Part shown: one piece after another, positions 7,027 through 57,911 of the stretch
Layout of the letters: every line of letters begins with the position of its first letter
Position numbering within the stretch: position 1 is the first letter of the stretch
From: an uncultured Actinomycetota bacterium
GTDB lineage: Bacteria > Actinomycetota > Actinomycetes > Mycobacteriales > Micromonosporaceae
Assembly (NCBI GenBank): GCA_963803115.1
Contig: CAWDLN010000003.1
Coordinates: forward strand, 372,304-436,303
DNA length: 64,000 nucleotides
Direction of reading: 5' to 3'
Translations under genes and position numbers: made by a program
Notes under the pieces: generated by a model
The model's input: the letters and a program-made list of their open reading frames with translations, nothing else
What the model was told of the DNA's origin: nothing
Databases searched by the model: none

Positions 7027-7085
7027 CCGATCTTGGAGAAATGCGCATGGTTCGATCTCCGTTCACGCGCTTTCTTCCAAGGTCG
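7027..7085. repeat. 58-bp imperfect palindromic repeat, copy A (CGATCTTGGAGAAATGCGCATGG...TCACGCGCTTTCTTCCAAGGTCG)
   Basis: Starts 9 nt after the uvrB stop; arms CTTGGAGAAATGCGC / GCGC(T/A)TTCTTCCAAG pair; copies B (39936) and C (57854) are homologous. Confidence 0.6.
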
Positions 7086-7122
7086 GCGGGGCGTGCAGCC
7101 ATCGCGGGGACTCGGCGACGGG

Positions 7123-7171
7123 GCGAGGCGGCGATGGCGAGGCGGCGATGGCGAGGCGGCGATGGCGAGGG
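7123..7171. repeat. tandem 14-bp repeat (ggcgaggcggcgat x ~3.5)
   Basis: Read directly in the uvrB / epimerase convergent spacer. Confidence 0.6.
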
Positions 7172-7195
7172 CTGGCGGCGGTCGTGAGGTCTCGG

Positions 7196-8164
7196 TCAGC
7201 CGGCGGCGGAAAGGGCGTCGTCGTCGGCGGTGAAGTCGATGCTGGCATCGGCGGGCGCGTGGGCTAGGTGCCAGGCGACTGACCGGGCGAGACCGGCAGC
7301 GGGGTCCGGTCGCCAGTCCAGCAGCCGCCGCGCCTTGTACGCGTCGAAGACGACATGCTGGTCGATCCGTTTCGTCATCCACATGTCCTCGGGCACGGTC
7401 GACTCCGGCACGATCACAAGTTCCGCCTCGTGTCCCGCAACGCCGAGGATCTCGGTGGCCCACCCGCGCATGCTGCGGATCGCGGGTTCACCGATGTTGA
7501 GCACCTCACCCCGCACCCGAGGGTTGCCCAAGCAGGCGAGGACGGCGGCGGACACATCGCCGACGTACGCCCGCGACCACAGCCAGGTCCCGGTACCGAT
7601 GGGGATCCGGGTCCGGCCGGCCCGGACCCGGCGCAGGATGAACTCCTCACGCCGCTGGTGATCGTGCTCACCGTAGATCATCGCCAGCCGGAGCACGGCG
7701 GCACCACGCTCCAGATAGGACGGTTCCACGTCGAGCTTGTCGTAGTCGTCGGGCCGGACCCCACGGTCGCGGTATGGATACCGCACCTCGCGCAGGCGGG
7801 AGTCCTCGTTCAAGGGGACGGGCTCGCTCTCCCGGCCGCCAACCAGGACACAGTAGAACGCCTCGTAAACATCCATACTGGACAGGAGCACGAGCTCTGC
7901 GTCGGGCAGGTGGGGCAAAACAGCGTCCACATCGGAGCGTCTCATCGCAAGGCTGTCCACGATGGCGTCCGGGGCGAACCGGGCAACCTCGGTCGCCACC
8001 GTCGCGAATGCGGCCCGGTCCACATGTAAGTGCCGACACGGGGGCAGGTCCGGAGGCTCGGTCTCGCCCCGGTGCACGACAAGCACCTCATCACCACGCG
8101 CCACGAGGTCGGCCACGATCCGCCGCCCGATAAACCTGGTACCGCCGATGACCACAACCCGCAT
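7196..8164 (-). CDS. NAD-dependent epimerase/dehydratase family protein
   Basis: MRVVVIGGTRFIGRRIVADLVARGDEVLVV (Rossmann GxxGxxG); the ORF to 8446 is upstream read-through. Confidence 0.7.
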   Translation of the reverse strand: MRVVVIGGTRFIGRRIVADLVARGDEVLVVHRGETEPPDLPPCRHLHVDRAAFATVATEVARFAPDAIVDSLAMRRSDVDAVLPHLPDAELVLLSSMDVYEAFYCVLVGGRESEPVPLNEDSRLREVRYPYRDRGVRPDDYDKLDVEPSYLERGAAVLRLAMIYGEHDHQRREEFILRRVRAGRTRIPIGTGTWLWSRAYVGDVSAAVLACLGNPRVRGEVLNIGEPAIRSMRGWATEILGVAGHEAELVIVPESTVPEDMWMTKRIDQHVVFDAYKARRLLDWRPDPAAGLARSVAWHLAHAPADASIDFTADDDALSAAG

Positions 8165-54695: not shown

Positions 54696-54814
54696 ACCGG
54701 AACTGGCACGCATTGGAGGCGCTTCTTGTCGGAGGGCCCGGCTAGAGTTGCCACGGCGTGGCGACCTGGGATGCTGCGCTTGGGCCGTAACCGTTTGACG
54801 TATCGGTAAGGCTG

Positions 54815-57802
54815 GTGACTGTGCAGGACCGGTTGATCATTCGCGGCGCGCGGGAGCACAACCTGCGCGATGTCAGTCTGGACCTGCCCCGCGATGCGAT
54901 GATCGTCTTTACCGGATTGTCGGGATCCGGCAAGTCGAGCCTCGCCTTTGACACGATCTTCGCCGAGGGTCAGCGTCGCTACGTCGAGTCGCTGTCGTCG
55001 TACGCCCGCCAGTTCCTGGGGCAGATGGACAAGCCGGATGTCGACTTCATCGAGGGCCTCAGCCCGGCCGTCTCGATCGACCAGAAATCGACCTCGCGCA
55101 ACCCTCGTTCGACGGTTGGCACGATCACTGAGGTCTACGACTACCTGCGGCTGCTCTTCGCCCGAGCCGGCGAGCCGCACTGCCCGATCTGCGGGTTCGC
55201 GATCTCCCGTCAGACGCCGCAGCAGATCGTCGACCGCGTCCTGGCAATGGCGGACGGAACGCGGTTTCAGGTGCTGGCGCCGGTGGTCCGGGGTCGCAAG
55301 GGCGAGTACGTGGACCTCTTCGCCGAGCTGCAGTCCAAGGGCTTCGCGCGGGCCCGCATCGACGGCACGGTGCACCCGCTGACCGAGGCGCCGAAACTCA
55401 AGAAGCAGGAAAAGCACACCATCGAGGTCGTCGTCGATCGGCTCGCGGTCAAGGCCAACGCCAAGCAGCGCATGACCGACTCGATCGAGACCGCGCTCAA
55501 ACTGGCCGGCGGCATCGTGCTGCTCGAGTTCGTCGACCTGCCCGAGGACGACGAGGGTCGGGAGCGGAAGTTCTCCGAGCACCTCGCCTGCCCGAACGAC
55601 CATCCGCTGGCGATCGAGGACCTTGAGCCGCGGTCGTTCTCGTTCAACGCGCCCTACGGTGCCTGCGTCACCTGTACTGGGCTCGGGACGAAGAAAGAGG
55701 TCGACCCGGAGCTGATCGTGCCCGACGCGGAGCGATCCCTGCGCGAGGGCGCGATCCAGCCGTGGGCCGGTGGGACCACGCTGGAGTACTTCCTGCGCCT
55801 GCTCGAAGCGCTCGGGGACAAAGAGGGTTTCACGCTCGACACCCCGTGGCGAAAGCTTCCGCAGCGCGCTCAGAAGGCGATCCTGTACGGCGCCGAGGAC
55901 CAGGTTCACGTCCGGTACCGCAACAAGTACGGGCGCGAGCGGTCGTACTACACCGGGTACGAGGGCGTCGTGCAGTGGCTCGAGCGGCGGCACTCGGACA
56001 CGGAGTCGGAGTGGTCCCGTGAGCGGTACGAGGGGTACATGCGCGACGTGCCCTGCGAGGCGTGCGGCGGCGCCCGGCTCAAGCCCGAGATCCTCGCCGT
56101 GACGATCGCCGGGCGCAACATCGCCGACGTGTGTGCGATGTCGGTCGGCGAGTGCCACGAACTCATCGACACCATCGAGCTCACCGACCGCCAGCGGATG
56201 ATCGCAGAGCGCGTCCTGAAGGAAATCAACGCCCGGCTGCGGTTCCTGGTCGACGTCGGTCTCGATTACCTGTCGCTTGACCGGCCGGCCGGCACGCTTT
56301 CCGGCGGCGAGGCGCAGCGGATCCGGCTGGCGACGCAGATCGGTTCTGGTCTCGTGGGCGTGCTGTACGTCCTCGACGAGCCGAGCATCGGCCTGCACCA
56401 GCGCGACAACCACCGTCTTATCGAGACGTTGGTGCGGCTGAAGAGCCTGGGCAACACCCTGATCGTCGTCGAGCACGACGAGGACACGATCCGGACCGCG
56501 GACTGGGTGGTCGACATCGGGCCCGGTGCGGGTGAACACGGTGGCCAGATCGTCCACAGTGGACAGCTGAAGGACCTGCTCAAGAACACGGACTCGATCA
56601 CGGGCGCGTACCTGGCCGGGCGGAAGATAATCCCGATGCCGATGGTGCGGCGGCCGCAACGGGCGGGGAAGCAGCTCACCGTCCACGGCGCCCGCGAGCA
56701 CAACCTGCGCAATCTCACGGTGAGCTTCCCGCTCGGACAGTTCATCGCGGTGACCGGCGTCTCCGGATCCGGGAAGTCCACGCTCGTCAACGACATCCTG
56801 CACGCGGTGCTGGCGAACCAGATCAACGGCGCCCGCCTCGTCCCCGGTCGGCACACCCGGGTCAGCGGCATGGACCAGGTCGACAAGGTCGTCGGCGTTG
56901 ACCAGTCGCCGATCGGGCGCACGCCCCGATCCAACCCGGCCACGTATACCGGTGTCTTCGATAGCATCCGCAAGCTGTTCGCGGAGACCACCGAGGCGAA
57001 GGTGAGGGGGTACGGCCCGGGTCGGTTCTCCTTCAACGTCAAGGGTGGCCGCTGCGAGAACTGCGCCGGAGACGGCACGATCAAGATTGAGATGAACTTC
57101 CTGCCCGACGTCTATGTGCCGTGCGAGGTGTGCAAGGGCGCCCGGTACAACCGGGACACTCTGGAGGTCCACTACAAAGGCCGCAACATCTCCGAGGTAC
57201 TGGACATGTCGATCGAGGAGGCCTCCGGATTCTTCGAGGCGATTCCGGGCATACACCGGCACCTGAAGACGCTGGTCGACGTGGGATTGGGTTACGTACG
57301 GCTGGGGCAGCCGGCCCCGACCCTCTCCGGTGGCGAGGCGCAGCGGGTCAAACTCGCCAGCGAGCTACAGAAGCGCTCGACCGGGAAGACCGTGTACGTC
57401 CTCGACGAGCCGACCACCGGTCTTCATTTCGAAGACATTCGCAAGCTGTTGCTGGTGCTCGAAGGCCTCGTTGACAAGGGCAACACGGTCGTCGTCATCG
57501 AACACAATCTCGATGTGATCAAGACCGCCGACTGGGTCATCGACATGGGTCCCGAAGGCGGACACAAGGGCGGGCTTCTCGTCGCCATCGGCACCCCAGA
57601 GGAGCTCGCCGAGACGCCGGAGAGCTACACGGGCGAGTGGCTGCGGCACGTGTTGGGTCTGAAGGGCAGGGCCGCCTCCTCTGCCCGTCCCACCGCCGCA
57701 TTCGAGCGCGCCGCCGTCGCCAACGGTGCCGCCCAACCCGTACGGGCCGTCACCGTGACTCCTCCCCGCCGCACCCGCGCGAAGGCCAGCGCCACCCGCT
57801 AA
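54815..57802 (+). CDS. uvrA: excinuclease ABC subunit A
   Basis: 995 aa, colinear with mycobacterial UvrA (two ABC modules, zinc fingers [19 protein letters not shown]); GTG start. Confidence 0.95.
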
Positions 57803-57853
57803 GCTGCTGGCCGCCGCCTCACGCGAAGGCTTCCCCCGCTCGCACATCCCCGC

Positions 57854-57911
57854 CGATCTTGGGCGAATGCGCATGAGTCGATCTCTGATCACGCGCATAA
57901 CCCCAAGGTCG
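57854..57911. repeat. 58-bp palindromic repeat, copy C (more diverged)
   Basis: CGATCTTGGGCGAATGCGCATGAGTCGATCTCTGATCACGCGCATAACCCCAAGGTCG, ~50 nt after the uvrA stop. Confidence 0.6.

Follow-up and report, generated by a model that had tools for sequence, protein, structure and literature searches.

Short palindromic repeats are well studied in Proteobacteria and scarcely described in Actinobacteria, save for TRIT. The repetitive extragenic palindromes (REPs) and the related REPINs are short extragenic palindromes that occur at many loci and are concentrated at gene ends (PMC3116915, PMC2817692, PMC3733652). A REPIN has conserved ends and a variable, compensated hairpin (PMC3116915), and REP palindromes carry a GTAG or CGTC tetranucleotide tag at one end (PMC3733652). 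TRIT is a conserved palindrome at mycobacterial gene ends, present in 147 copies in M. tuberculosis, mostly bidirectional, and reported to be restricted to Mycobacterium (PMC3152330). The element described here is a 58-nt imperfect palindrome that occurs three times in a 64,000-nt stretch (the window) of contig CAWDLN010000003.1, from an uncultured member of the Micromonosporaceae (assembly GCA_963803115.1). It is probably, at a moderate level of confidence, one of a lineage-restricted family of dispersed palindromic repeats, similar in kind to REPs and REPINs or to TRIT, that is copied as DNA and kept at the 3' ends of genes.

The three copies in the window, whose coordinates were established by direct inspection of the sequence (Table 1), run in the same direction. 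They follow the stop codons of genes for UvrB, an AMP-binding ligase and UvrA, at distances of 9, 11 and 51 nt, respectively. A sequence-only reading of the window had proposed this arrangement together with the gene identities, and both stand. A 57-nt degenerate pattern derived from the copies has three matches in the window, against 0.00 expected from 100 shuffles, and a repeat-finder joins the copies into one family at 79-86% identity. When the whole window is searched with a covariance model and no filters, exactly the same three come back, at 73-77 bits. Because its loop is asymmetric, the element has an orientation. All three copies lie on the + strand, where their covariance-model scores exceed those on the - strand by 24-37 bits; for copy 1 the values are 73.5 and 41.6 bits.

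An alignment of 24 sequences gives a 23-bp stem and a 12-nt loop. The core is thus 58 nt long, or about 66 nt with the first flanking pairs. Three parts are conserved: the stem base GATCTTGG/CCAAGATC, the loop-closing pairs CGYGTGA/TCACGCG and the loop GTCGATCTCCRA. The variable part consists of seven mid-stem pairs (alignment columns 14-20 with 47-53), in which pairing is retained. Standard pairs fill 89.1% of the stem cells in this alignment, and 11 of the 23 pairs are changed on both sides. The covariation score is 0.305, compared with 0.124 for shuffled alignments (0 of 500 reach 0.305) and at most 0.152 when the structure is slid. The stem is therefore kept by compensatory changes; a lack of these and of further copies is what the sequence-only reading had said would refute it. 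Within the window, the stems hold 17-20 Watson-Crick pairs and 1-3 G-T pairs at their 23 positions. Fold z-scores range from -3.6 to -7.6 as RNA, on either strand, and from -3.7 to -7.6 as single-stranded DNA. In all copies the loop (for instance, window 7051-7062) reads GAUCUCC on the + strand, similar to GAUCACCUCC in the 3' tail of 16S rRNA, and GGAGAUC, a Shine-Dalgarno-like sequence, on the - strand; either resemblance may be a coincidence.

This anatomy is close to that of REPs and REPINs, which likewise combine a hairpin having conserved parts with a variable part that is compensated. The families also share homogeneous copies within a genome, together with lineage-restricted, vertically inherited distributions. 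There are differences in detail. The GTAG or CGTC tag is absent from either end of the present element, whose ends read C-S-S-CGATCTTGG ... CCAAGRTCG. Its 23-nt arms (for instance, CGATCTTGGGGTTTTCCGCGTGA) contain no internal hairpin, and the element folds as a single stem-loop. Since the arms are not themselves small palindromes, it is not a REP doublet. Its conserved centre is the apical loop, while the centre of a REPIN is a variable spacer, and its host is an actinobacterium.

One informative feature of the alignment is the way in which pairing is lost. Mismatches comprise 24 G·U and 25 A·C and show no strand bias, and fold energies are alike on both strands. Such equal counts are what symmetric decay of a DNA palindrome produces; selection acting on a single transcribed RNA strand would not produce them. 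The palindrome is perfect in young copies and decays symmetrically in older ones.

Further copies were found with a metagenome scan that specified the stem base and loop only (CTTGG-N15-TCGATC-N5-TCA-N11-CCAAG). It gave 24 matches. Nineteen of them clearly belong to the family and come from soil and rhizosphere contigs of high GC content. For 18 of these 19, the flanks are unrelated to the window or to each other; the remaining member, L016, is an orthologue of copy 3. The genes beside them are ordinary ones, such as panB, a NUDIX gene, leuA and an aldehyde dehydrogenase gene, among others. The family is therefore dispersed in the manner of REPs, as had been suggested from the window by itself. 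Its loci are many and unrelated, and they come from at least two lineages of uncultured Micromonosporaceae. Homologues of UvrB, UvrA and LeuA put the source organism among uncultured Micromonosporaceae, with cultured Luedemannella, Phytohabitans and Dactylosporangium about 85% identical; exact look-ups of the window's UvrB and ligase proteins gave no record in the public collection.

Six copies from one soil sample, Ga0164243 (3300012940), are perfect 23/23 palindromes, and five of them have an identical stem. The sixth (L025) differs from the common stem by a single flip of a G-C pair to C-G. A seventh copy in this sample, L013, has two mismatches. One leuA locus was assembled in five samples, and three of the contigs break off at the element or no more than about 50 nt from it, which suggests a repeat that breaks assembly. 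Unrelated flanks, ordinary neighbours and identical perfect copies in one sample together point to dispersal by copying of DNA.

Three other searches returned no member of the family. A scan of genome contigs from 185,579 species representatives used the inner stem of the window copies (CTTGG-N4-ATGCGC-N-TG-NN-TCGATC). All eight of its matches were due to chance, in a Rhodobacterales coding gene and elsewhere, and none was a palindrome. Because the inner stem varies, this pattern was too narrow, and it is silent on variants in cultured Micromonosporaceae. IMG/VR contained no match to the element. A blastn search of plasmids gave no full-element match, its single match being a 28-nt chance stretch in a Caballeronia regulator gene.

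Comparison of orthologous sites shows that relatives differ in having the element. Behind uvrB, it is present in the window, L009 and L011 and survives as a half remnant in L010. In L009, whose UvrB is 99% identical, the orthologue of copy 1 carries about 10 substitutions. In L011 (UvrB 96% identical), a copy with 20 of 23 positions paired stands at the same position, with the same stem base and loop and an inner stem that is different yet compensated (GGGG/CCCC vs GCGC/GCGC). In L010 (UvrB 96% identical), the 5' half alone remains, beside a rearrangement. After uvrB, no element is found in L036/37, L038 or the Luedemannella loci L039/40, and L041 has none after uvrA or anywhere in 23 kb. The copy 3 orthologue in L016 is decayed, with flanks 80-89% identical and 11 of 23 Watson-Crick pairs. 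The uvrB and uvrA loci thus differ in presence and absence among relatives, a polymorphism for which the sequence-only reading had proposed to look. A diverged copy in L036/37 reads GATCTAGGG ... CCCTAGATC with the loop CTTTGATCTTCGAC, and in it the CTTGG/CCAAG pair is changed on both sides. Near the uvrB end of L011, a 58-nt C-rich insertion (12034-12091, with runs of CCGCCCCGCCC) relative to the window and L009 leads to an earlier stop.

At the orthologous uvrB site, three close relatives have three different inner stems (window/L009, L011 and L010). Relative to the window, the L011 stem shows four paired transversions, and it is similar to the 'ATATCG' stem found in L018, an unrelated copy. 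Synonymous divergence among these relatives is high, so the inner stem could have changed in situ. The difference is better explained if another family member took the place of the copy, or if one arm served to correct the other. A similar case is provided by two perfect copies, L025 (415-480) and L012 (608-673), whose stems are alike but for the one pair flipped from G-C to C-G. Such a paired transversion is hard to obtain through two independent point mutations, which hints that one arm was corrected from the other.

Table 1. Copies of the element in the window and the features next to them
Feature	Position	Strand	Description
Copy 1	7028..7085	+	CGATCTTGGAGAAATGCGCATGGTTCGATCTCCGTTCACGCGCTTTCTTCCAAGGTCG; 5' arm 7028-7050, loop 7051-7062, 3' arm 7063-7085
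Copy 2	39935..39992	+	CGATCTTGGAGAAATGCGCGTGAGTCGATCGCAAATCACGCGCATTCTTCCAAGGTCG; 5' arm 39935-39957, loop 39958-39969, 3' arm 39970-39992; 77.4 bits
Copy 3	57854..57911	+	CGATCTTGGGCGAATGCGCATGAGTCGATCTCTGATCACGCGCATAACCCCAAGGTCG; 5' arm 57854-57876, loop 57877-57888, 3' arm 57889-57911; 76.4 bits
uvrB	4874..7018	+	3' end abuts copy 1
Epimerase-family gene	7196..8446	-	convergent on copy 1; 3' end at 7196, start codon uncertain
AMP-binding (acyl-CoA ligase-like) gene	38397..39923	+	upstream of copy 2
uvrA	54815..57802	+	upstream of copy 3
Response regulator (Response_reg + GerE/LuxR)	57928..58770	-	convergent on copy 3
Extended imperfect hairpin	6993..7120	+	copy 1 forms the apex; C-rich left flank (including the uvrB stop) pairs with G-rich right flank

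The position of the element relative to genes is distinctive. At least 10 of 17 resolvable independent contexts lie between convergent genes, compared with 14% of gene junctions in related loci (p = 2e-5); the gene calls behind these contexts are rough, having been made from GC content by codon position with the collection's own calls as a supplement. All copies lie between genes or reach no further than the last codons of one. Distances to stop codons range from 5 to 70 nt and are often 5-12 nt on both sides, and six open reading frames (ORFs) run into the element and stop at its internal TGA. The divergent L036 copy lies 24 nt before a gene start. In tandem contexts, five copies are sense to the upstream gene and one (L013) is antisense, which is not significant (p = 0.22).

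These contexts qualify the earlier claim that the copies are co-oriented with the gene upstream. It is true that all three window copies share the + strand with that gene. For copies 1 and 3, this is uninformative, because convergent genes end 110 nt and 16 nt downstream: an epimerase-like gene, with orthologues called in L009, L036 and L038, and a LuxR-type response-regulator gene. In the family as a whole, orientation to genes is not fixed, since most copies lie between convergent genes and one tandem copy is antisense.

The sequence on either side of the element is also biased. The left 30 nt are C-rich (GC skew -0.26, 20 of 23 copies) and the right 30 nt are G-rich (+0.28, 19 of 23). This skew reaches about 35 nt on each side, and ordinary gene ends in the window have a value of about -0.04. 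In the predicted fold, a longer imperfect hairpin has the element at its apex. The two flanks of one copy pair with each other better than flanks of different copies do (permutation p = 0.001-0.003), solely over the 8-12 nt or so next to the core. With flank complementarity so confined, the idea that the element entered a long terminator hairpin already in place is not established. The flank pattern could stem from any of three causes: outer parts of the element that are less conserved, small GC-rich palindromes being preferred as targets, or selection for rut-like C-rich RNA upstream of the hairpin on both strands.

Some copies have short tandem duplications directly against their 5' end. In L042 (3029-3098), a 19-21-nt unit GACCTCGCCGCGCCCTCCY occurs about 3.5 times and runs into the element. 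In L034 (2444-2470, - strand), 13 nt from the 5' end of the element itself are duplicated, GCCGATCTTGGGT/GCCGATCTTGGAG. About 40 nt downstream of copy 1, at 7122-7170, lies a perfect 14-nt tandem repeat (GGCGAGGCGGCGAT, 3.5 units) that the orthologous intergenic regions in L009 and L011 lack.

The reading of the element as a dispersed, DNA-copied repeat implies a mechanism. New copies would arise within a genome through copying of the DNA element, most likely by an enzyme whose recognition of the folded single strand depends on the loop and the stem base, both conserved. Such an enzyme would be analogous to the HUH/Y1 transposases that recognise REP and IS200/IS605 hairpins. Copies at gene ends may survive because insertions there would be harmless. 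Once transcribed, the hairpin would become a 3' structure of the flanking mRNAs, and it probably marks or protects Rho-dependent 3' ends, unlike a classical intrinsic terminator. This connection to Rho is suggested by the C-rich sequence found upstream on both strands.

Several observations weigh against the proposal. Ten proteins that adjoin copies are housekeeping enzymes, and no mobilising enzyme was found beside any copy. No pair of empty and filled sites with clean junctions was seen, nor any target-site duplication. The invariance of CTTGG, TCGATC, TCA and CCAAG in the metagenome copies was imposed by the search pattern, so that the evidence for conservation here comes from L009, L011, L010 and L036, which came to light in other ways. 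There are three copies in the 64 kb of the window and none in 40 kb of a relative whose UvrB and UvrA are 96% and 91% identical. The well-paired, different inner stem of L011 at the orthologous uvrB site could mean host selection for the hairpin, as opposed to selfish spread. Likewise, the ratio of five sense to one antisense copies in tandem contexts leaves room for a function at the RNA level.

The comparison with REP systems is affected by the first of these points. In REP systems, a single-copy Y1 HUH gene, the RAYT (REP-associated tyrosine transposase) gene, is flanked by repeats. No RAYT gene is among the neighbours of the copies, and none of the loci inspected has two copies flanking a gene. 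REPs usually number more than 100 copies per genome.

The sequence-only reading had also suggested that the element acts as a terminator or stabilises mRNA. This finds no support in the window, where zero terminator-like sites surround the three copies on both strands. In a canonical intrinsic terminator, a U-tract of 7-9 nt follows a GC-rich hairpin directly, and no copy has a U-tract on either strand; after the stem come GCGGGG, TGGATG and CGAAGT in copies 1-3. For this reason, the copies are not canonical intrinsic terminators. A 23-bp stem is long enough to be a substrate of RNase III, as opposed to a protective cap. The likeness to intrinsic terminators is limited to a strong GC-containing hairpin just after a stop. 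Ordinary terminators have locus-specific sequence, whereas the present family has one sequence at many loci, with a conserved loop and no U-tract. The element also resembles the 3' stem-loops of Actinobacteria, which are typically long and U-less and occur where Rho dependence is high (PMC13613805). A hairpin of this sort that is unrelated to the family, except for a common AATGCGC/GCGCATT, stands in the same window shortly after the rpsA stop (3856-3903). It is a perfect 22-bp hairpin with a 4-nt loop, AGGAAGGGCACCTTTCAATGCGC TGGC GCGCATTGAAAGGTGCCCTTTCT, and has a z-score of -5.7.

Another model for the family, possible but clearly less likely, is a dedicated termination or 3'-end motif of the host, similar to TRIT. 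In this model, the element is an RNA hairpin that is read by a cellular factor, is under selection and serves both convergent genes. TRIT offers a precedent, since its conserved sequence suggests a factor that binds double-stranded RNA (PMC3152330). Like TRIT, the present copies are actinobacterial palindromes set tightly against stop codons, sometimes overlapping them, without a proven role as terminators. The resemblance is one of behaviour only, as the present family belongs to Micromonosporaceae and has its own consensus. The model would account for copies that lie 5-70 nt from stop codons and in some cases supply the stop, for the enrichment of convergent intergenic regions and for the C-rich (rut-like) sequence upstream of the hairpin on both strands. 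It would also account for a loop that is conserved beyond the needs of stability (including the L036 variant), for the pairing that the L011 copy at the uvrB site keeps despite its different inner stem, and for the five-to-one ratio of sense to antisense in tandem contexts.

Other evidence is difficult to reconcile with such a motif. The element lacks the U-tract that mycobacterial RNA polymerase requires at intrinsic terminators (PMC3993855). TRIT predictions themselves overlap just 2-4% of mapped M. tuberculosis 3' ends (bioRxiv 10.1101/2022.06.01.494293). Wobble pairs and A·C mismatches show no strand preference, the orthologue in L016 has lost its pairing and close relatives lack the element at the same genes. 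Finally, identical perfect copies at unrelated loci would still need a mechanism of copying.

A more speculative and still less probable idea is a structure-specific actinobacterial system, in which a protein reads the apical loop and stem base and the arms are regenerated from each other through hairpin-templated copying or correction. It might take the form of a new mobile element that targets hairpins, or of a bidirectional 3'-end signal that depends on a factor. Regeneration of the arms would explain perfect palindromes whose mid-stems differ by paired transversions (L025 vs L012). It would explain how the inner stem came to be replaced at one of the orthologous sites (window, L011 and L010) and why copies sit at the apex of longer locus-specific hairpins with a switch from C to G skew.

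It is improbable that the element is a minimal MITE (a miniature transposable element with inverted repeats), that is, a 58-nt remnant moved by cut-and-paste whose arms are the terminal inverted repeats of a DDE-type insertion sequence elsewhere. In form the element is like a MITE, with two inverted arms of 23 nt, a short spacer between them and copies scattered through intergenic DNA, and the homogeneity of copies in one sample suggests a burst. However, the flanks of 23 copies contain no direct target duplication. The pair formed by columns 8 and 59 (the fourth base of the 5' arm and the fourth-last of the 3' arm) shows GACC...GGTC variation, a complementary pattern as opposed to a direct one. 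DDE termini need conserved sequence, and not a compensated variable mid-stem with a conserved centre. No distant inverted pairs of the terminal motif occur in about 480 kb of sequence. A search of the same sequence for a larger element with the same termini found none; an occurrence of GATCTTGG at 29922 is a chance match in coding sequence.

Least probable of all is a double-stranded DNA site, such as an operator or a nucleoid-protein site for a dimer that reads two GATCTTGG half-sites (a damage-response regulator, for example): the half-sites are symmetric and conserved and two of the three window copies adjoin the excision-repair genes uvrA and uvrB, but the copies lie downstream of genes and not at promoters, the half-sites are 42 nt apart, and a duplex binder gives no reason for the intervening DNA to be self-complementary. 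The actinobacterial SOS box TCGAAC-N4-GTTCGA, of LexA type, has 11 matches in the window with up to 2 mismatches, and none overlaps a copy; other copies of the element adjoin unrelated genes.

Outside these explanations, the attC sites of integrons offer a likeness in form. They too can measure about 58 nt, form an imperfect palindrome after an ORF and combine conserved outer boxes with a variable self-complementary interior, and they are recognised as a folded single strand. The present consensus differs in having no GTTRRRY/RYYYAAC core sites, and there is no cassette array or integrase. In addition, the window copies are 18-33 kb apart, beside syntenic housekeeping genes. A comparison with mycobacterial interspersed repetitive units (MIRUs), made in the sequence-only reading, is a poor one because MIRUs are tandem minisatellites.

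No described family was found to correspond to the element. Rfam gave no match over the window at gathering thresholds, and permissive E-values gave only generic microRNA hairpins. No description of the family in Micromonosporaceae was found in the literature. The REP survey and the HUH survey consulted make no mention of Actinobacteria, and RepRanger includes three Actinomycetota genomes and no Micromonosporaceae. The family is thus apparently undescribed so far, which agrees with the failure of the sequence-only reading to recognise it.

The window contains several other repeats and anomalies. Downstream of copy 2, a co-oriented lipoprotein-like ORF (signal LLITGC) starts 148 nt after the element and is spread over three frames within 40141-41705 (40141-40980, 40850-41314 and 41202-41705). 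It has no Pfam match and could be a pseudogene or the product of assembly frameshifts. A 37-nt motif made of runs of C and G, TTTCTCCCGCCCCCCGCCCTTCGGGCCCGCCCCCCGG, occurs at 2003-2039 and 27168-27204 as inverted copies that are 25 kb apart and 89% complementary, neither of which is notably stable as a hairpin alone. Within the ORF at 52995-54695, a 21-nt tandem repeat (53300-53464) encodes a 7-residue protein repeat; it is seen as six overlapping 60-nt copies at a spacing of 21 nt that are 60-85% identical. Lastly, a 300-nt stretch at 45898-46197 recurs at 47315-47614 with 72% identity. The two stretches belong to adjacent - strand genes of about 480 aa each, which look like tandem paralogues.

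Beside TRIT, the present family provides a second actinobacterial example. Its anatomy is clear, with a conserved loop and base and a free but compensated mid-stem; its copies include young and decayed ones, and close relatives are not alike at orthologous sites. These features make it possible to test how such repeats spread, what recognises them and whether they shape the 3' ends of transcripts where intrinsic terminators are scarce. In practical terms, the element breaks short-read assemblies of these soil bacteria and yields spurious antisense ORFs.

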